This document shows, piece by piece, positions 10,598-38,693 of a stretch of DNA of 64,000 nt. The stretch comes from an uncultured Candidatus Bathyarchaeia archaeon (GTDB lineage: Archaea; Thermoproteota; Bathyarchaeia; Bathyarchaeales; Bathycorpusculaceae). Position numbers and translations under genes: made by a program. Every line of letters begins with the position of its first letter. Within the stretch, counting starts at the first letter, position 1. Where the stretch lies: assembly GCA_964506875.1 (NCBI GenBank), contig CAZDNV010000001.1, positions 4,853-68,852 on the forward strand, given 5' to 3'. The notes under the pieces are model-generated. The model was not told the DNA's origin, ran no database searches, and saw nothing but the letters and a program-made list of their open reading frames with translations.

Positions 10598-12100
10598 ATG
10601 AGCGGTAAGATAGTCTTGACCGCTGACAGCACTCTTATGAGCGATTATCGACAAAACGAGTTTCTAGGTTTCGGAACATGCGCGCCGCCAAACTTCATTC
10701 CGAACTGGCTCTACAAATGGCTCTTTTTCCCGCCTATGAAGGCAAGAGAGGGTCTGCCAGTCGCGGCACCGTATGGCCTGAGAAAGATCGAAGCCCAGCT
10801 GCTGGATGATGGCTTTGACGTGACGACTGTTGACCCGAACCATCTTAGAGAATACATTGATGAGGCTAAGGTTTTAGGCATTCATGTCATGGATCCTTTC
10901 GGCTTGGGCCCAGCTTCAACTACTCTTGCATCCATTCTCAAGAAGGAGCCATTCTTGGCTCAGTACTTCCGCGCCTTGATGTGCAGTTCAGATGTTAGGA
11001 AAGCGAAAAGACGAGGGTTGAAAATCATAGTAGGCGGCCCTGGCTCTTGGCAATTTCAATACAGGCCAAGGTTCACTAGAGAGTGCGGAATAGACTGCGT
11101 CGTCACTGGAGAGGCTGAAAACGTAATCGGAAAAATTGTGCAAGCCGCCCTTGACGGCAAAGACCTCCCAGAGTCCTACGAGGTAAGAACTGAAGAAACC
11201 CCAACTTTGGACGAGATCCCAGAAATCGTAAATCCCTCAGTTAACGGTTTAATAGAGATAGGCCGCGGATGCTGCCGTGGCTGTCAGTTCTGCAGCGTTA
11301 CTTTGAGACCGCTCAGATGGTTCCCTTATGAAAAGATAATGCGGGAACTAAATGTTAACCTAGATAGAGGAAACACGAATGGAGCCTGTCTTCACGCCGA
11401 GGATGTTATGCTTTATGGCTCCAAGAACACCATGCCAAATGACGAGAAACTCCTTGGACTTCACAGGATGATCATGAAGAAATGCGGTGGCATAGCGTGG
11501 AGCCACTGTTCACTGGCAGCGGTAGTATCAAGGCCAAAGCTTCTCTTAGAAGTCGCTGAGCTGGTTCAAATGAAACAGCCATGGTGGGGCGTCGAGATTG
11601 GCATAGAAACCGGGTCGCCGGAGCTTGCAAAGAAGATTATGCCTGCAAAGGCACACCCCTTCAAACCTGATGAGTGGCCACATGTTGTGCGTGAAGGTAT
11701 GGGATTGATGCATGACAGTAAGCTAGTACCTGCAAGCACACTGATCGTAGGGTCTCCTGAAGAGACAGAAGATGATTTGATCAAGACAATTGAGCTGATG
11801 GATGACCTTAGAGGATTCAGAAGTCTAATTGTCCCCTTGTTCTTTGTACCTATGGGAAGACTGAAAGACGAAGACTGGTTCAAAGACACGCAGATGACCG
11901 AATTGCATCAACAACTGCTGGCTAAATGCCTGGAACACGATTTTCGCTGGATAGACGACCTGATCGGCTTAGCATTTGCCCGAAGCTACTATGCAAGACT
12001 ATTCAGGCCCTTCTACAGAGCGTTTGTGAGAATAGCGAGATACAAGGCGAGAAAAGCAGGGATAGGAGCCAAAGACAAGGTTCTGTCAAGTCTTCGGTGA
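10598..12100 (+). CDS. B12-binding-domain radical SAM protein
   Basis: 500 aa. CCRGCQFC (CxxxCxxC) cluster motif after an N-terminal Rossmann-like (B12-type) region. Confidence 0.75.
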   Translation: MSGKIVLTADSTLMSDYRQNEFLGFGTCAPPNFIPNWLYKWLFFPPMKAREGLPVAAPYGLRKIEAQLLDDGFDVTTVDPNHLREYIDEAKVLGIHVMDPFGLGPASTTLASILKKEPFLAQYFRALMCSSDVRKAKRRGLKIIVGGPGSWQFQYRPRFTRECGIDCVVTGEAENVIGKIVQAALDGKDLPESYEVRTEETPTLDEIPEIVNPSVNGLIEIGRGCCRGCQFCSVTLRPLRWFPYEKIMRELNVNLDRGNTNGACLHAEDVMLYGSKNTMPNDEKLLGLHRMIMKKCGGIAWSHCSLAAVVSRPKLLLEVAELVQMKQPWWGVEIGIETGSPELAKKIMPAKAHPFKPDEWPHVVREGMGLMHDSKLVPASTLIVGSPEETEDDLIKTIELMDDLRGFRSLIVPLFFVPMGRLKDEDWFKDTQMTELHQQLLAKCLEHDFRWIDDLIGLAFARSYYARLFRPFYRAFVRIARYKARKAGIGAKDKVLSSLR

Positions 12101-12214
12101 AAACGAGCCTGCAAAGACTTCTGTAAAAATTCGGTGATACTCGATCTCTACGATTGATCAGATTGTTTGTAAAGCTGTTACTTTTCAGTTGCCGAGCTAA
12201 ATCTTATATTGAAA

Positions 12215-12379
12215 ATGGGTGATACACCAATCAAGGAGAGGTTATTGGTGACGGAAAAAATCTACGTTAGAAAACATTGTAACTGTCCCCATTGTGGAAA
12301 AAAGGTTGAAGTCGTAATTCGCCATGATACACCTAGTCTGCAAGTCTGGCTTAGGAAGCCAAAAGATAGCTCTCATTGA
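12215..12379 (+). CDS. small hypothetical CxC..CxxC protein (54 aa)
   Basis: ATG-to-TGA ORF found by hand (MGDTPIKE..HCNCPHCGKK..). It is below the ORF-track length cutoff. No RBS or homology support. Confidence 0.2.
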   Translation: MGDTPIKERLLVTEKIYVRKHCNCPHCGKKVEVVIRHDTPSLQVWLRKPKDSSH

Positions 12380-12413
12380 TAGAAATAGGTTCGCTAGTGC
12401 TTACCACTCGATT

Positions 12414-13541
12414 CTATTCTTCATAGCTTGCATTTTGGATTAGAGTTAACCATTTGTTCTTACCTTTTACTGTAATTCCGCAGGCTTCCGCTGGAGTCTT
12501 TCCTTCTAGCCCTTCATGGCCTCTAATGTAATTGTGGAAAAGCTGGTATCCTGCCAAGATTGGAGTGTCATTCCTCTTAAGTCCTCTCATTGTCTTTTCT
12601 CTGTCTCGGATTTCTCCGTTGAAGCGTTCCATCTTGTTGTTGTTCTTGTCCCCTCTAATCGTGATGTGACGGATATGCTCTGTTCTGGGCTTTGTTTTTG
12701 TCCAGAACTCCTTCATGTAGGCAAGGTGATAACTGTGCAATCCGTCAGTAATCAACGTTTTTGGCTGTTTTCCAGCTACCTTCTTGCCCATTTGGAAAAG
12801 CTGTCTGGCATCATGCTTCTGCTTCGACTCTGCAACTTCTTGAGCTATCCAGAAACGAGTTTCATCGTCCATCAAGGCGAAGAGATATTTCATGTCGCCT
12901 TTTATTTTGACGTATAGTTCGTCTGCTCTCCAAGTGTCGCTTACGTTTGGAACTATCTTCTCAACATAATCTTGCATCAACTTAACATACTTGCGAATCC
13001 AATTGTAAACCGTCTGATGTGAGACCTCAACACCTAACAATTTCAGAGATTTCATCGTGTTTCTCAATGATTCACCGCTAAAGTAGAGTTGCATGGCGCT
13101 AGTGATTGCTTGTGGGTTGTGCTTCATCTTTTCAAAGCCAATGTTCACACTGAACGTTTTTCCACAGTCTTCACACAAGAAACGCTGAATATCCGCACTC
13201 TTGTTATGCCTCACTTCAAACTTCTTAATGCGTGGTGAATGGCAGTAGAGACAATTTGAAATGGCTACTTCCTCAATCACAATGTTCGCTCTTACTCGTT
13301 CTCTCATTTTGAGGCTAAACTCTACAGCCCAAATATGCTTGCACTTCACACTACGAAACCGATGATCTGGACACTCACAACGCCATTCATCCTCAGAGAG
13401 ACAAACAGCATACTCGCCGTTTCCACTCTGAGAAAGAACCCTGTAAGTAGAGGCATCAAACCGAATGATTTGACTTTCTTTGGCCCTTGCGATTTCTAAG
13501 CCCCTTGATTCGCGGAGATTCGTTGTTTGTTGCGCGTTCAT
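12414..13541 (-). mobile_element. IS6-family-type DDE transposase gene with N-terminal SWIM and Zn-ribbon modules (IS ends not defined)
   Basis: 375 aa. CECPDHRFRSVKCKHIWAV (SWIM-like). DDE region WRADELYVKIKGDMKYLFALMDDETR, LITDGLHSY, NNKMERFNGEIRDR match the IS6/IS26-type pattern. Confidence 0.8.
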
Positions 13542-13546
13542 TTTTA

Positions 13547-13599
13547 GGCACCTAACAGGTGTTAGGTACCTAATGCTATTTATGCTTTTCGGTACCTAA
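13547..13599. repeat. three copies of GG(C/T)ACCTAA plus a palindrome in the transposase/AbrB-like divergent intergenic region
   Basis: ggcacctaa at 13547-13555, ggtacctaa at 13565-13573 and 13591-13599. cctaaca-gg-tgttagg forms an inverted repeat, and ttaggtacctaa is a perfect palindrome. Confidence 0.5.
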
Positions 13600-13608
13600 A
13601 GTTTTTAT

Positions 13609-13824
13609 ATGGGAACTGTGGATAAGATATTGGGTACTAACTTGAGACTGCAAAAGCAACTATCTAGAAAAGTTGGAGAGAAGGAATACCCTAAATACGT
13701 TATTACCATTTCACCCAAACAGATAGAAAAACTGGGGTGGAGAGAAGGTCAAGATTTAGATGGAAAGATACGACAAGGCAAGCTTATAATCGCGGTATCT
13801 AGAGAAAACGAAGAACACAAGTGA
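13609..13824 (+). CDS. AbrB/SpoVT-like small DNA-binding protein
   Basis: 71 aa. The ITISPKQIEKLGWREGQDL..GKLII pattern is typical of swapped-hairpin AbrB/MazE-type domains. Confidence 0.5.
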   Translation: MGTVDKILGTNLRLQKQLSRKVGEKEYPKYVITISPKQIEKLGWREGQDLDGKIRQGKLIIAVSRENEEHK

Positions 13825-13828
13825 TCTT

Positions 13829-14716
13829 TTATGGAGAAGGATATGCTTTTTTGAACGCATCGCTTGCCAAACCCGATTGAGCTAGACCTTGGCTAAGACC
13901 TTTCGTAATAATGTCTAAGAATTTGTTGTAGTTTCCTGAGACTTCGGTTTCGGATAGTTCTCTAAACCCGCCACTGTTTATGACCGCAACTTTAGTCATG
14001 CCCCCAGTGTATCTGTCTGATGTTTTGACTTCGTTGATGACATATGATGAAAACATTGTCGCGTCTTCTACGCTCAGAGTTGACCAAGTTATATGAAAAG
14101 CATTCATGCTTCGTTTTATTTGTTTCATTAACAAGTCTGCTAACGCTGATCCAGAGCCAAGCGTTTCATATTCATCAATAGGGTTTACCCAACCAGCAGG
14201 TTCAAGCAAATATAGACCGAATGACATTTGACCATTAATATCTTCCAGTTTTGCTCCAAGAATGGACACAGGATGAAAGAACATCCCGACTTCAGCTAAT
14301 CCCAAGAACCTTGACCTTTCAACATTGTGTTTTCGGTGTAGTTCTAACAAAACACTCAAAACGTTTTCCCGCAATTGCCTATCGCTAAACCTTTGATCTC
14401 CGAGACCCTCAGCCAATTCCTCGACACACATTTTAATTTGAGCCGAATCTCCTGATCCAGCAAGGGCTAGGTAAGCTGGTTGTCTTCCCTTTGGTATTGG
14501 AAAAATCTTGTTTTCGTCCAAACTTTTCATGTCTAATCCTTTTTTGTATGATCCTTGGCTGTCACAAGCAAGCACGATTCCATCATTGCATTTTATCCCG
14601 ACTACTGTAGTCAAAGGTTTCACTTCATGTGTTAGGTATCTAAATCTTGGTCTTAAGCCTTCTGAACTATCTTCCTCTTTCAATCTGTCACCCTTATGGG
14701 TCAAACGAAGATTCAA
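13829..14716 (-). CDS. divergent proteasome-beta-like Ntn (Thr) hydrolase with a C-terminal extension
   Basis: 295 aa. TTVVGIKCNDGIVLACD gives Thr1 and Asp17 spacing. NKIFPI is a Lys33-like position, and LAGSGDSAQ and TLGSGSALA are present. The true start may be the in-frame GTG, giving MKPL|TTVVG. Confidence 0.7.
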   Translation of the reverse strand: MNLRLTHKGDRLKEEDSSEGLRPRFRYLTHEVKPLTTVVGIKCNDGIVLACDSQGSYKKGLDMKSLDENKIFPIPKGRQPAYLALAGSGDSAQIKMCVEELAEGLGDQRFSDRQLRENVLSVLLELHRKHNVERSRFLGLAEVGMFFHPVSILGAKLEDINGQMSFGLYLLEPAGWVNPIDEYETLGSGSALADLLMKQIKRSMNAFHITWSTLSVEDATMFSSYVINEVKTSDRYTGGMTKVAVINSGGFRELSETEVSGNYNKFLDIITKGLSQGLAQSGLASDAFKKAYPSP

Positions 14717-14909
14717 AAAAACAGACTACAGTTTACACATCGACCGCTTTGATGGGCTAACCATCAACCGAGAAGTTGAATATGCGTCTCCATCACCGAT
14801 TTTTTACACGGACTCGTAGGGCTCGTTTTCACCGAAGACTTGACAGAACCAAAGACAACTAGGCTTAAATATCACCACAAAACTCAGACAATAAGCACCT
14901 TAACAATGG

Positions 14910-14986
14910 GCCGCCGTAGCTCAGCTAGGTAGAGCGGCTGGCTGTTAACCAGTCGGTCATAGGTTCAAGTCCTATCGGCGGCGCCA
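14910..14986 (+). tRNA. tRNA-Asn (GTT), CCA encoded
   Basis: Hand fold: acceptor GCCGCCG/CGGCGGC, D arm GCTC..GAGC, anticodon arm GCTGG-CTGTTAA-CCAGT, T arm ATAGG-TTCAAGT-CCTAT, discriminator G, CCA. Confidence 0.95.
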
Positions 14987-14987
14987 C
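14963..14987. repeat. attL-like core (25-bp exact direct repeat, inside the tRNA-Asn 3' end)
   Basis: gttcaagtcctatcggcggcgccac is identical to 17409-17433. Confidence 0.85.
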
Positions 14988-15098
14988 TCACAAACCGAGG
15001 ACTGCCAGTCTTTTGCCCTCCAGAATCCCCTTTTTTGCATTCCTCTAACCTGACGCGCGCTAGATACCGTTATTACCAGATCAATAGGATAGTCATAT

Positions 15099-15941
15099 TT
15101 GTGGTTGGTGGGACAATTGACGCTTATCATAACAGAGCTTTCTTCATTGGGAATAGTGATGGTGGGCGACACTGCTCAATCAGTCGAAAGCCTCCTCCCG
15201 AATCGGGCAATAGGAGAAAGAGCATTCTTTGGGTTGATTAAGGTAATACCCATTATGAGACTGCGTGCTGGGGCTTCGTACTGGGGATGGACCAAGATGC
15301 CTCCTGACGAGAATACTGGTGTGTGGCTAGACTGGTGGTTGCAAGATTTCATCGACAGAAGACATGGCGAATACGAAACAGTTGAAGGTCTCGCACGATT
15401 GCTGGAACATGAATTGCGAGGACTTGTTCCTAGGTTAACAGAGGATGAGCTTTCTGCAATGCCCTTCGGTCAAGGAGGAATTCACCTTGCAGGCTTTGCT
15501 GACGACGACGGACGGAGAGTGCCATGTTTTTGGCATATACATAATGGAAGAAGCCAAGCATTCCTAGGAAGAAATCTCGACCCACATATAGTCAATGCCA
15601 ATTATGATTGCCCGCCAACTAGATTCCTGGAATTTGATAGACGGGGTCATACTTATGTGACCAGAAATGGTGATATAGACGCATATGGGCGATTCTTCGA
15701 AAGACATTTGGTGGGCTACGTGGAAGAATTAAATCGTGAACTCGGAATACTAGCCCCTCTCCCGCTGCTATCGACTCGTGCGGAGTTTTGGAGTGCACAG
15801 ATTGAGTTCATATCGGCGTTGTATGAAGCGAGCGGGTTAACTGTTAACGGAGGCATCATACAGATGGTCAAAGGAATAGGGGATCAGGTAACAACTCTGA
15901 CAATTACACCTTCAGATATCCGAAGCTATTTTACTCGTTGA
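15099..15941 (+). CDS. hypothetical protein with a proteasome-beta/Ntn-like N-terminal signature
   Basis: 280 aa. (TTG)-TLIITELSSLGIVMVGDTAQ places Thr directly after a possible TTG start at 15117, with Asp 16 residues later. IKVIPI and GGIHLAGFADDDG..FWHIHNG resemble beta-subunit blocks. Function is inferred only from these motifs. Confidence 0.4.
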   Translation: MWLVGQLTLIITELSSLGIVMVGDTAQSVESLLPNRAIGERAFFGLIKVIPIMRLRAGASYWGWTKMPPDENTGVWLDWWLQDFIDRRHGEYETVEGLARLLEHELRGLVPRLTEDELSAMPFGQGGIHLAGFADDDGRRVPCFWHIHNGRSQAFLGRNLDPHIVNANYDCPPTRFLEFDRRGHTYVTRNGDIDAYGRFFERHLVGYVEELNRELGILAPLPLLSTRAEFWSAQIEFISALYEASGLTVNGGIIQMVKGIGDQVTTLTITPSDIRSYFTR

Positions 15942-16747
15942 GCGCGGGCGCAATGAAAAGAAACTTTTCTGACAAAGAGTTGTGGAACAAAATCTATGCT
16001 AATTTTGATAATGAGATTTGCAGAAAGTGTTGTCAGCAGATATTCTCTTCTTCTCCTGCTAAATACATAAGCAAACCCCAACCCATGCCTTACATCGGTC
16101 CCGATTTCCGTAGAAGTAAACAGCATTTAATGTTTGTAGGAATCGAAACCTACGGCAATTGGCCTCCAAGAAAGTGTCTCCAAAATAGAGGATACTGTGA
16201 ATTTGGTACGGCGGAAGTTGAGAGGTTGTTCTTTGAAAGGCAGAAAGAAAAGAGTAGAATAAAATACAGTCCATTCTGGAGATGGGTCAAGGAAATATCA
16301 ATGGAAGTTACTTCGCCCACAAAGGATCCTCAAGAAGCCTTCAGGCGCATAGCATATTCGAATCTACACAAATGTCAGGTCAGAGATGGACCCACAAGAA
16401 AGGATTTTGATGACCGGAAATACCAATTGGACGAATTGTCCTTCAGAAATTGCATCCAAAGAGCAGGCTGGATATATAAGGAGATTGAGGAAATAGGAGC
16501 AACAAACATTGTTGTCTTTTCTGGGACCAAAAAAAAGAATCTGCTTGCGCGGATATTTCTTGGCAAGGATCAAGAACTTGCCAAGTGGAAGGGTCGTTAT
16601 CTCTTCGTTCATCTGAAAGATGGAAAGAGAAGAATCATTGTAGTGAATCATCCGCACGGAACACTAAAAGCTGTACGCAAGAGAATTGCCAAAACAATAA
16701 GAGAGGATGATTGGAGCACAGCGCGGGCTTGGAAAATGCCGAATTGA
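15938..16747 (+). CDS. hypothetical protein with uracil-DNA-glycosylase-superfamily-like motif order
   Basis: 269 aa. 4-nt overlap with the previous ORF (or an ATG at 15953). LMFVGIETYG sits where UDG family 4 has GEAPG. AYSNLHKC, NIVVFSG and IIVVNHPHG (versus HPS) follow in the expected order. Confidence 0.35.
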   Translation: MSAGAMKRNFSDKELWNKIYANFDNEICRKCCQQIFSSSPAKYISKPQPMPYIGPDFRRSKQHLMFVGIETYGNWPPRKCLQNRGYCEFGTAEVERLFFERQKEKSRIKYSPFWRWVKEISMEVTSPTKDPQEAFRRIAYSNLHKCQVRDGPTRKDFDDRKYQLDELSFRNCIQRAGWIYKEIEEIGATNIVVFSGTKKKNLLARIFLGKDQELAKWKGRYLFVHLKDGKRRIIVVNHPHGTLKAVRKRIAKTIREDDWSTARAWKMPN

Positions 16748-16845
16748 CGCGCGCTTCATGGATTTTGAGAGATACGCTAATCAAGAATAGATAGATTGAA
16801 ATTGCACCGAGGGTTATCTAAATGCTTAGATAAATATTAGCGACA

Positions 16846-17370
16846 ATGGAAGCAGCGATAATACGCGTTCGGATGGATTTGGAGGACCCAAATGAAAGCC
16901 AGGCTCTGCGGATAGCTCCAGAGAAGGGCAGCAACCCTCGCGTCTTCCAGCTCAGCCCGAAGGCGGTACAGATGCTCAACCAACTGCCACGCGACCACGA
17001 GCACATATTTCTCGGCCACTATAGAAACAGTTACAGTCTTCGTCGGACGTTCCAGAAGCAGAGAAAACGAATAGCCATTAAACTCGGAAACCCCCGCATC
17101 AACCAGATACGTTTCCATACACTGCGCCACTGGGTTGGCACGATGACCTACTACAAAACGAAAGACATACTCCCCACGATGCAAGTTTTGGGCCGCAAAC
17201 GCATACAGAATACACTGAAGTATACACAACTCGCAAAGCTTCCAAACAAGGACGACTACGTATGCAAAGTCGCAAAGAGCAAGGAAGAAATTGCTCCGTT
17301 AGTAGAAACAGGATTCGAATACGTCTGCACGGATCAAGAAGGATTGAAATACTATAGGAAACCCAAGTGA
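16846..17370 (+). pseudogene. 5'-truncated tyrosine recombinase (integrase) fragment
   Basis: 174 aa. RFHTLRHWVGT (HxxR) and LGRKRIQNTLKYT (catalytic Tyr) are present. The N-terminal core-binding domain and first catalytic Arg region are missing, and stop codons lie in all upstream frames. Confidence 0.7.
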
Positions 17371-17408
17371 GCGCACACTAATGCGGGTGACTTGACCAGG
17401 AGTCGCCA

Positions 17409-17433
17409 GTTCAAGTCCTATCGGCGGCGCCAC
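17409..17433. repeat. attR-like core (displaced copy of the tRNA-Asn 3' end)
   Basis: Exact 25-mer copy of 14963-14987. The flanks diverge immediately on both sides. Confidence 0.85.
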
Positions 17434-17590: not shown

Positions 17591-18418
17591 GTGGATTCAG
17601 GGGAGCCGCGTATCAAGGCAGTGACTTTTGACCTGTGGGAAACGCTGCTTTTTGAAAGGGAGGGTGCTACCAATCGCAGAAGAGTAGCCCGATGCAGCAT
17701 CCTTGTCAGCGCCTTCAATAAGCTTGGAGTGTCTGTCTCCACTGAACAAGTGAGCAAAGCTTTGACGCAGATAATAGAGCGGCTTCTGGCGGTTTGGGAC
17801 AGAAACATCGACATCAGCCACGTGGAGCAGCTTGAGCTCCTTGTTAGATACGTTTCGAATGGCTCGCTTACCTTAGAGAATAAATGGGTTGAGGAGTTGA
17901 GTAGGGCTTATATTTCGCCCTTTTTCGAGATTCCGCCCTATCTTAACCCAGATGCAGAAAACGTATTGAAAAACTTGACCGACATTGGGAAAAAGATTGG
18001 GTTGATATGCAACACGGGTTTGACTCCTGCATTCGCGTTGAGAAAGTTCCTGGATTCAGAGAAAGTGCTGGGCTACTTTGATTTCCTGGCTTTCTCCGAT
18101 GAGATCGGTTTCCGGAAACCAGATGCCAGAATATTCCACCTTGTAGCAAAAAAGTTGAAGGCCTCCCCCTGCAATATTGTCCATGTAGGCGACAACCTGA
18201 GAATAGACGTTTGTGGCGCCAAGAACGCTGAGTTCAAGGCGATACACTTCGCGTGCGATGCCGGACGAGACAAGATAGCAGAGGCAGACCCAACATCACT
18301 CGTGGCCCAATCACGGAACCTCGGAGCATTGAAGAAGGCAAACATGGCGCCTGACAAAACCATATCACGTTTCGATACTCTTGCCGAAGTCATCAAAGAA
18401 ATAGAGGCAGATGCCTAG
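17591..18418 (+). CDS. HAD-superfamily hydrolase (subfamily IA-like)
   Basis: VTFDLWETLL (motif I-like), ICNTGLTP (motif II), FRKPD (Lys), VHVGDNLRIDVCGAKNA (motif IV). Confidence 0.75.
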   Translation: MDSGEPRIKAVTFDLWETLLFEREGATNRRRVARCSILVSAFNKLGVSVSTEQVSKALTQIIERLLAVWDRNIDISHVEQLELLVRYVSNGSLTLENKWVEELSRAYISPFFEIPPYLNPDAENVLKNLTDIGKKIGLICNTGLTPAFALRKFLDSEKVLGYFDFLAFSDEIGFRKPDARIFHLVAKKLKASPCNIVHVGDNLRIDVCGAKNAEFKAIHFACDAGRDKIAEADPTSLVAQSRNLGALKKANMAPDKTISRFDTLAEVIKEIEADA

Positions 18419-38193: not shown

Positions 38194-38363
38194 TGGTGGG
38201 GCCGGCCGGATTTGAACCGACGACCTTTACCCGGAAACAGTGCATAGGCGCTGCTCCTACGGGTTTCTCTAACTGCTCCAGAACTTCTTCATCCCGTTCT
38301 GGTCCGCAAACCCGTTCGCTGCTTTCTGGAGCCCGTCGTCATACCTGCCTAGACTACAGCCCC
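38194..38363 (-). tRNA. tRNA-Trp (CCA) precursor gene with about 93 nt of intervening sequence; CCA encoded
   Basis: Hand fold with exons 38363-38326, 38264-38259 and 38226-38194. Acceptor GGGGCTG/CGGCCCC, anticodon arm ACGGG-CTCCAGA-CCCGT, variable loop AGGTC, T arm GTCGG-TTCAAAT-CCGGC. Confidence 0.8.
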
Positions 38364-38402: not shown

Positions 38403-38495
38403 GCATTGTTCCCTTGGCCGATCCGACTTGCAGTAAGGCCCAGCGATCGTGAAGCGAAAAGTTAATGAGTGAAGAGTTCACGTGGTATTTGGGGT

Positions 38496-38612
38496 TTGCC
38501 GGCCATGGGGCGCGGGACCCACCCGATCCCATACCGAACTCGGAAGTTAAACTGCGCTCCGTTCTCGGCTGTAGTGTGGTCTTAGGCCACGTGAACCCGG
38601 GAAAGCTGGCAG
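38496..38612 (+). rRNA. rrf: 5S ribosomal RNA
   Basis: Contains CCCGATCCCATACCGAACTCGGAAGTTAAAC (universal loop B/helix III region). Terminal helix TTGCCGGC/GCTGGCAG. Confidence 0.85.
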
Positions 38613-38693
38613 CTCCACTCAAAATAGACATTTCTAAGATGCGGCTTAGTTAGCCAAAACTTATAACCAAGAGCTTGATAGTCTTTTCGAAAG

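Follow-up and report, generated by a model that had tools for sequence, protein, structure and literature searches.

Two proteasome-fold, putative N-terminal-threonine hydrolase genes on different mobile elements beside a Bathyarchaeia tRNA-Asn gene

Introduction

What are two genes resembling proteasome beta subunits doing beside one tRNA-Asn gene of a Candidatus Bathyarchaeia archaeon, and do they belong to the housekeeping machinery of the host or to mobile DNA? We addressed this question in a 64-kb stretch of contig CAZDNV010000001.1 (hereafter the window, meaning the whole stretch of DNA analysed), whose proteins have their named relatives in metagenome-assembled genomes (MAGs) of Candidatus Bathyarchaeota/Bathyarchaeia. 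An initial annotation had reported two open reading frames (ORFs), here genes A and B, both of which are present, and had placed them in one mobile patch. Both do lie on mobile DNA: B within a decayed element at tRNA-Asn, and A within an IS6-family transposon that had been missed along with its repeats and target duplication. Our favoured reading, to which we assign a probability of about 70%, is that A and B are both intact and under selection, that they encode proteasome-fold hydrolases whose N-terminal residue is a threonine, and that each is carried by a different mobile element beside tRNA-Asn.

Results

Gene A lies inside an IS6-family transposon

Gene A is enclosed by an insertion sequence (IS) of the IS6 family. 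The window contains GGTTCTGTCAAGT at two places only, 12079 and 14850, in opposite orientations, and the inverted repeats are perfect over 31 nt and flanked by an 8-bp direct repeat, AAAGACAA. In silico removal of the IS and one copy of AAAGACAA restored the C-terminus of the neighbouring radical-SAM protein (...AKDN*), and a related locus, L016 (related loci carry L numbers throughout), presents the uninterrupted junction, GATAACTAG, followed by tRNA-Asn. The insertion sits one codon before the radical-SAM stop, turning ...AKDN* into ...AKDKVLSSLR*, read from the inverted repeat; it lies 52 bp upstream of tRNA-Asn, and a TTAAATAT box remains between the two.

The transposase matched Pfam DDE_Tnp_IS240 (E = 6e-19), and its best match in NCBIfam was transpos_IS6, with 123.1 bits in the window (cut-off, 125) and 138.5 bits in L086. 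IS6 members typically generate an 8-bp target duplication and have inverted repeats starting with GG (PMC7986276), hallmarks shared by three A-carrying elements, those of the window (2,772 bp), L072 (3,561 bp) and L074 (2,429 bp). Compact IS6 elements measure ~0.7-0.9 kb (up to 1.7 kb) and have the transposase as their only gene, a passenger being recorded for one member only, ISDsp3 (PMC7986276). The A elements do not follow this compact, transposase-only format, as they carry A and p71, a 71-aa ORF. With IS6/IS26 elements, ISDsp3 included, they have in common the IS6-type DDE transposase, the GG-starting repeats and the 8-bp duplication; they differ in size (2.4-3.6 kb versus ~0.8 kb typically), in the length of their inverted repeats (22-31 bp versus 14 bp) and in a conserved proteasome-type passenger plus regulator, in a family with one known passenger-bearing member (PMC7986276). 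Gene A, p71 and the transposase gene are under purifying selection, as judged from ratios of non-synonymous to synonymous substitution rates (dN/dS) of 0.14, 0.19 and 0.06, respectively, against L072.

The transposon varies between its left inverted repeat and the transposase stop (12109-12414). This segment measures 335 bp in the window, with a Cys-rich 56-aa ORF for which no homologue was found in related elements, and its counterpart in L072 (8121-9226) measures 1.1 kb, with ORFs of 49 aa and 146 aa. This end of the transposon may serve as a second cargo slot.

Gene A is a divergent proteasome-beta homologue

ORF A carries LTTVVGIKCNDGIVLACD, which places T36 and D52 at the spacing of Thr1 and Asp17, followed by K70 in NKIFPI, a GSG at 187-189 and D234-x-x-T237-G-G. 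Throughout the family alignment, K70, G89, G187, G189, G238 and G239 are invariant, and S188 and D234 nearly so. Mapped onto canonical beta subunits, T36 corresponds to Thr1, D52 to Asp17, K70 to Lys33, G89 to Gly47, S188 to Ser129, D234 to Asp166 and T/S237 to Ser169; because all these equivalents are kept, A has the full catalytic set. The protein matched Pfam Proteasome (PF00227; E = 2.3e-7, above the curated cut-off), and its profile aligned with that of canonical beta subunits at an hhalign probability of 99.8% (E = 2.8e-28). An AlphaFold model with a predicted local distance difference test score (pLDDT) of 80.5, low at the termini only, matched archaeal 20S beta subunits at template modelling (TM) scores of 0.74-0.76 (Foldseek E = 4e-12 for Thermoplasma beta). 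By its residues, profile matches and predicted fold, A is a divergent proteasome-beta homologue.

The catalytic signature read from this ORF by the initial annotation is thereby substantiated, and the profile and structure searches that it had suggested for both proteins returned proteasome-beta-type matches for A and B alike. Its picture of a 295-aa protein with about 80 extra C-terminal residues needs revision: the C-terminal extension comprises ~30 residues, the remainder being internal insertions, and ~34 N-terminal residues are probably untranslated.

Could A nonetheless be the housekeeping proteasome beta subunit (psmB) of this archaeon? The PF00227 match would agree with this, as would the label '20S proteasome alpha/beta subunit' given by JGI to its relatives and the lack of a canonical psmA or psmB in the window, although 64 kb is too small for psmB to be expected. 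However, A reached only 38.3 bits against TIGR03634, the NCBIfam equivalog for archaeal beta subunits, whose cut-off is 224, and the gene sits between transposon inverted repeats with a fresh target duplication. On the strength of this score and this position, A is not an orthologous, housekeeping PsmB, in keeping with the earlier impression that it looks unlike one. Its family is also rare (~37 clusters at E <1e-25) and forms a clade apart from canonical beta subunits, which match at ~1e-8 only. The psmB explanation is extremely improbable. In other libraries, A weakly matched a PHROG HslV family and had no match in PADLOC.

Gene A recurs with IS6 transposases

Gene A is a recurrent passenger of IS6-family transposons. 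An IS6 transposase stands beside it in 7 of 12 distinct loci, with A as much as 84% and as little as 29% identical to the window's copy, and three A-carrying elements have intact ends. L072/L073 contain the block of A, p71 and transposase gene amid different flanking genes, at 81% identity over 2.3 kb, and the L072 element shows inverted repeats and an 8-bp duplication (TATCTCCT) of its own. A third element, in L074, differs in its inverted repeats and bears the duplication GGCGGCGA; its A is 46% identical. IS6 transposases are likewise found next to A in L077, L078, L081 and L086/L087; in the last of these, A is only 29% identical to the window copy and the gene arrangements differ. The association spans three different gene arrangements. 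At positions 1024-2198 of L086/L087, an IS6 transposase of 291 aa, convergent with A, is followed by an uncharacterised 100-aa ORF.

The start of gene A most likely lies directly before its threonine

A TTG codon (14614-14612) directly precedes Thr-Thr in the A gene of the window and would give a 261-aa product, MTTVVGIK.... At the same position (-1), TTG is found in the window, L072, L074, L077, L078, L079 and L080, ATG in L076 and GTG in L081. A Leu codon other than TTG never occurs there, and neither does Gly: the codon is TTG, ATG or GTG in each of the 10 A loci (9 besides the window) that contain the motif. As TTG accounts for 20-23% of Leu codons, its use in six independent lineages has a chance probability of ~1.5e-4. 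In-frame stops lie immediately upstream of the ATG in L076, and the extension in L077 is 9 codons only.

A could instead be made as a 295-aa (or 284-aa) precursor whose ~35-residue propeptide is cut autocatalytically at Leu-1/Thr1, as in classical beta subunits. The ORF is indeed open to 14716 in the window and also open in L072; change within the extension is biased towards synonymous sites; the extension resembles the pre-S1 segment of alpha subunits; and a weak 'FRYL' motif recurs in several members. This motif, however, falls on a conserved 12-bp DNA palindrome and a TATA-like TTTAGATA; the palindrome copy at 14632-14643, which overlaps that box, accounts for the apparent motif. The TATA-like TTTAGATA is centred ~26 nt before the TTG, a spacing that corresponds to the geometry of a leaderless archaeal promoter. 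Because the -1 codon is always a start codon and 'FRYL' coincides with the palindrome and TATA-like box, we place the start of A most likely at TTG 14614, giving 261 aa without a propeptide; the extension is then most likely a conserved promoter/operator region rather than protein. Its synonymous substitution rate (dS), half that of the core, fits constraint at the DNA level. The stops in L076, the short extension in L077 and the lack of Gly at -1 likewise speak against a cleaved precursor, as does the fact that propeptides are reported in beta subunits and HslV only (PMC8665760), and we regard this alternative as unlikely.

Shared palindromes link gene A to the transposase and p71 genes

Homologues of p71 occupy the matching position in L072, L074, L078 and L079, and three of the five p71 members matched PF04014 MazE_antitoxin (MazE/AbrB; best E = 2.9e-4). 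The divergent transposase and p71 genes start 67 bp apart, and this gap holds three copies of the palindrome TTAGGTACCTAA. With at most one mismatch, the window contains 4 copies of TTAGGTACCTAA, all within the transposon; with at most two, it contains 5 matches versus 0.99 expected by chance. L072 and L078 show the same arrangement. In L079, the palindrome upstream of A is retained together with one downstream copy, L074 has three palindromes beyond p71 only and none upstream of A within two mismatches, and in L086/L087, the most distant A-carrying element, neither a p71 homologue nor a palindrome was detected.

Sharing of one palindrome by the promoter regions of A and of the transposase and p71 genes argues for integration of A in the regulation of the element. 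Going by its fold hint and position, p71 may be the element's repressor, binding the palindromes and thereby repressing A, the transposase gene and itself. Gene A would then act in the transposon's own circuit, most plausibly by degrading a labile repressor or the transposase/strand-transfer complex.

Alternatively, A might be a mere hitch-hiker, namely a stress or quality-control protease that benefits the host and has no part in transposition or its control. That an IS6 member with a passenger gene is known, if only ISDsp3 (PMC7986276), is compatible with this view, as are the incongruent divergences of A and transposase, the A-family genes outside any detectable IS and the lack of functional context for newly described proteasome homologues (PMC8665760). 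Such a gene would not readily explain why the association has held from 84% to 29% identity and through three gene arrangements, nor why, in several lineages, A shares a palindrome in its promoter region with the divergent transposase and p71 genes. We therefore hold the hitch-hiker explanation to be doubtful, yet the strongest of those weighed here against our own.

Gene B belongs to a proteasome-fold family with a conserved start before threonine

ORF B has a Thr directly after TTG 15117, an Asp 16 residues past this Thr and a Lys in IKVIPI. It had no match in Pfam, NCBIfam (including TIGR03634), PADLOC or PHROG, and neither phmmer nor a 60-sequence profile detected anything in the PDB by sequence. 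Its AlphaFold (AF2) model, built from an 89-sequence alignment, was nevertheless predicted with a pLDDT of 93.7 and a predicted TM score (pTM) of 0.91, and the 50 PDB matches listed by Foldseek were 20S proteasome subunits or Anbu, all at probability 1.0; among these, the best E was 2.3e-6 and TM scores reached 0.60. The best structural match in BFVD (TM 0.73) was a phage protein that carries the annotation 'proteasome beta subunit'. A broad B profile aligned with canonical beta subunits at an hhalign probability of 94.2% (E = 1.1e-7), pairing T1, D17 and K33, setting N184-G185 against Ser129-Gly130 and an I-G-G against Ser169-Gly-Gly. All four core helices are present in the model (H1, 71-81; H2, 89-103), and a short beta insertion (~8 residues, 32-38) lies between S3 and S4. 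The N-terminal nucleophile (Ntn) fold proposed for B by the initial annotation is thus borne out by model, structural matches and profile alignment: B is, by sequence and predicted structure, a proteasome-fold Ntn-type protein with a Thr/Asp/Lys triad and an oxyanion Gly.

The family is large, numbering at least 552 clusters: an exhaustive profile search returned 552 at E <=1e-3 and 260 at <=1e-10, nearly all of whose matches begin at profile position 1; ten distant members had no significant Pfam match. Its hosts comprise Bathyarchaeia and also Pirellulales and deltaproteobacterial MAGs. Among 60 members that are 21-52% identical, G12, K42, G57, G121 and G185 are invariant, and M1, T2, D18, W56, H123 and N184 nearly so; T2, D18, K42 and G57 stand for Thr1, Asp17, Lys33 and the oxyanion Gly47. 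The -1 codon is a recognised start in 53 of 54 loci (ATG 25, TTG 22, GTG 3, CTG 3; the remaining one is ACG) and never Gly, and an in-frame stop often lies a few codons upstream. In the window, a GGTGG ribosome-binding site precedes TTG 15117 by 7 nt (product, MTLIITELS...), and DNA similarity to several relatives extends exactly from 15117 to the stop codon. The earlier proposal of an N-terminal Thr in B agrees with these observations. In both A and B, then, a TTG directly precedes Thr, and methionine aminopeptidase, not propeptide autolysis, would expose the nucleophile.

Has B perhaps lost catalysis, surviving only as a structural relic of the proteasome fold? Ser129, Asp166 and Ser169 are without equivalents in B, and no PDB match was obtained at the sequence level. 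Against this, members only 21-52% identical show no or almost no variation at Thr1, Asp17, the Lys and the oxyanion Gly, and a start codon is conserved right before Thr, features that inactive alpha-type subunits do not retain. A dead B is accordingly very unlikely. Both A and B would be active hydrolases.

Gene B is the solitary cargo of a decayed tRNA-Asn element

The element carrying B (14963-17433) is delimited by a perfect 25-nt direct repeat of the tRNA-Asn 3' end and contains an integrase fragment, confirming that the att-bounded element is real and that B is cargo of an integrated remnant, as first proposed. It is a remnant because the integrase is truncated, lacking its N-terminal half and the first catalytic Arg box. 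What is left is 66% identical to the C-terminus of the L016 integrase ORF (a 595-aa mechanical ORF). L016 (1-4472) is the same tRNA-Asn locus in a related genome, free of the IS and occupied by a larger element that includes a B homologue and an integrase whose ORF is uninterrupted and has a zinc-ribbon N-terminus; this integrase lies directly against the tRNA but on the other strand, a topology unlike that of the window remnant. Related integrases were also found beside B in L027 and L058, and in L061 B has an integrase fragment as its neighbour. tRNA genes were found in 10 B-family loci, of which L020-L022 represent the same region; among the other tRNA-bearing B loci, att repeats were found in L021 only, most contigs being too short.

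To characterise the neighbourhood of B, all ORFs of the window region and of 71 related loci (72 regions) were clustered. Only the integrase recurred beside B, in 7 of the 72 regions with the window included. Among 150 neighbour ORFs from 46 B loci, the commonest Pfam families were Phage_integrase, DDE_Tnp_1, AAA_21, DegV, HEPN_AbiV, the DUF772 transposase, helicase domains and TIR_2, with AAA_21 ATPases being AbiEii-like. PADLOC identified OLD/GajA/AriA-like ATPases, MADS components and Cas1 among the neighbours. Several B loci adjoin defence-type genes (for example, L001 4036-4749).

The ORF that follows B, encoding 269 aa, overlaps the B stop by 4 nt with its start, and the initial annotation had called the two translationally coupled. 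Its protein was absent from every other fetched locus, including all 71 other B-family loci, and is therefore not a conserved partner of B; co-occurrence, which had been put forward as a check, is not seen. The ORF product has noise-level similarity to family-4 uracil-DNA glycosylases (UDG; E ~0.1, residues 178-257) and, likewise at noise level, to the lambda integrase N-domain.

A related alternative casts B as a ligase or transpeptidase with sequence specificity, comparable to Connectase (DUF2121), or else as half of a two-gene system with the 269-aa ORF. Connectase and B have in common the proteasome fold, an N-terminal Thr and an insertion at the S3/S4 site, where Connectase has its signature insertion and B ~8 residues (PMC8665760). 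In Connectase, however, this insertion consists of two helices and H1 and H2 are missing, whereas B has a short beta insertion and keeps both helices (PMC8665760); moreover, B has no Pfam match, and Connectase is not among the 50 Foldseek matches listed. The two-gene version can point to the 4-nt overlap, and is largely refuted by the occurrence of the 269-aa protein in 0 of 71 related B loci. Either version strikes us as highly improbable. Rather, B is the solitary cargo of a decayed tRNA-Asn element, in a family whose neighbourhoods are variable, mobile and partly defence-like, and it may act alone as an accessory, possibly defence-island, enzyme.

Layout of the locus

Coordinates of the two elements and their flanking genes are compiled in Table 1. 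Elsewhere in the window, Rfam returned a tRNA match of 167 nt (37.7 bits; 38197-38363, minus strand) without an ARAGORN call, probably an intron-containing archaeal tRNA, which adjoins a solitary 5S ribosomal RNA gene (38495-38614, plus strand).

Table 1 Features of the tRNA-Asn locus, in window coordinates
Feature	Position	Strand	Remark
Radical-SAM gene	10598-12100		B12-binding
Target-site duplication, left copy	12071-12078		AAAGACAA, 8 bp
IS6-family transposon with gene A	12079-14850		2,772 bp; ends are perfect inverted copies of GGTTCTGTCAAGT
Left terminal inverted repeat	12079-12109	+	GGTTCTGTCAAGTCTTCGGTGAAAACGAGCC, 31 nt
Cys-rich ORF	12209-12379	+	56 aa, in variable IS end; doubtful reality
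IS6-family DDE transposase	12414-13541	-	375 aa; N-terminal SWIM and zinc-ribbon domains
Palindrome array, putative operator	13544-13599		TTAGGTACCTAA x3 (13544, 13562, 13588)
p71	13609-13824	+	71 aa; AbrB/MazE-like putative DNA-binding regulator
Gene A	13829-14614	-	Proteasome-beta homologue, most likely 261 aa from TTG 14614; ORF open to 14716
Fourth palindrome copy	14632-14643		TTAGGTATCTAA, ~18 nt upstream of gene A TTG
Right terminal inverted repeat	14820-14850	-	31 nt, perfect match to left
Target-site duplication, right copy	14851-14858		AAAGACAA, 8 bp
tRNA-Asn (GTT)	14910-14986	+	Integration target
attL	14963-14987	+	3' end of tRNA-Asn, 25 nt
Gene B	15117-15941	+	Predicted proteasome-fold Ntn hydrolase, 274 aa from TTG 15117; ORF from 15099
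Orphan ORF	15938-16747	+	269 aa, TTG start
Truncated tyrosine integrase	16846-17370	+	C-terminal 174 aa only; Pfam Phage_integrase
attR	17409-17433	+	Perfect 25-nt copy of tRNA-Asn 3' end
HAD hydrolase	17591-18418

Discussion

The tRNA-Asn locus thus carries genes for two proteasome-type Ntn proteins on mobile DNA, the part of the earlier interpretation that stands; its pairing of B with the 269-aa ORF is unsupported, and its long N-terminus for A is probably not protein. Set beside the archaeal 20S beta subunit PsmB, A and B have in common the alpha-beta-beta-alpha Ntn fold, Thr1/Asp17/Lys33 and the oxyanion Gly. Ser129, Asp166 and Ser169 are also kept by A and replaced in B; with respect to the PsmB equivalog, A falls far below the cut-off and B has no match. 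Both differ from PsmB in lacking Gly-1 and a propeptide and in residing on mobile elements, and B has extra insertions. HslV, Anbu and BPH, which are homo-oligomeric and propeptide-free or nearly so, offer a parallel, in that A and B would likewise begin with Met-Thr, with Met removal exposing Thr1, and are single genes without an alpha partner. Anbu chains are among the structural matches listed for B. As to HslV, no HslU-type ATPase lies near A or B and no AAA+ gene in either element; by sequence, A and B lie outside these families, with no NCBIfam HslV match among those listed, and the weak PHROG match concerns A only. Archaeal hosts and location on mobile elements further set A and B apart from all three.

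A survey by Fuchs, Alva and Lupas in 2021 described 22 additional proteasome-like families, among them WPH, PHI, ACC, PMI-1 to PMI-6, PHD, PPH and AAH, which are without propeptides and have insertions and C-terminal helices (PMC8665760). It found no informative genomic context for the new families and listed, for Bathyarchaeia, WPH, PHI, ACC and beta subunits only (PMC8665760). Compared by description, A resembles ACC/WPH (archaeal, alpha- and beta-like, with a C-terminal helix), and B, from lineages listed with WPH, PHI, ACC and beta only, lacks the H3/H4 insertion and so departs from PMI-2 to PMI-6. PPH and AAH, spread by phages (PMC8665760), set a precedent for the dissemination of proteasome homologues by mobile elements. 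Here, by contrast, A has a conserved context, consisting of an IS6 transposase, an AbrB-like regulator and a putative operator. As far as we could find in the literature, this context is new for the A family, as are the evidence for a Met-Thr start in both families and the size of the B family together with its missing annotation in the libraries searched.

Several observations weigh against our reading. No relatives of A or of B were found among the viral contigs of IMG/VR. No transposase was found in 5 of the 12 A loci; some of these are short contigs, but in one, P0120, flanks of 5 kb contain none. Between L078 and the window, the transposases are 86% identical and the A proteins only 50%; this mismatch points to module exchange, suggesting recombination among related IS copies. 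Across the 34 codons upstream of the A TTG, comparison with L072 yields 5 synonymous and 3 non-synonymous changes, a pattern that would also fit a translated extension. We infer binding of the palindromes by p71 from a fold hint and position only. As for B, its second-shell residues Ser129, Asp166 and Ser169 are replaced, and the 72 regions contain no conserved neighbour other than the integrase.

How might a proteasome homologue serve a transposon? ICEBs1 encodes both its repressor, ImmR, and a dedicated protease for this repressor, ImmA; ClpX remodels the Mu transpososome, and Lon controls transposases. Proteolysis thus controls a repressor or a transposase in these systems, and the A element would bring together a DNA-binding protein, putative operators and a protease. 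By analogy, A might be functionally akin to ImmA/ImmR of ICEBs1 or to ClpX on Mu, although the protease classes are unrelated (metalloprotease or AAA+ versus Thr-Ntn), so that the parallel is a functional hypothesis. In its fullest form, our proposal is that an IS6 lineage recruited a Thr protease and an AbrB-like repressor with its operators for transposition control, and that B represents a new superfamily branch acting as a single-gene accessory or defence enzyme; we put this forward tentatively, as a rather unlikely conjunction.

Dozens of prokaryotic proteasome-like families are known, almost none with a known function, and their neighbourhoods were uninformative in the main survey (PMC8665760). 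The context of the A family, with its IS6 transposase, small DNA-binding protein, shared palindromes and clean boundaries, makes function experimentally addressable. It also extends the IS6 family, best known for minimal elements, by a group with a conserved enzymatic passenger. The B family constitutes a large proteasome-fold branch that is unannotated in the libraries searched and missed by simple profile searches against solved structures, and that recurs amid integrase, transposase and defence genes in Bathyarchaeia and some bacteria. If the proposed circuit is true, A would represent the first case of a proteasome homologue that is encoded by a transposon and takes part in transposition, whether it serves as an anti-repressor or remodels the transposase or transpososome.

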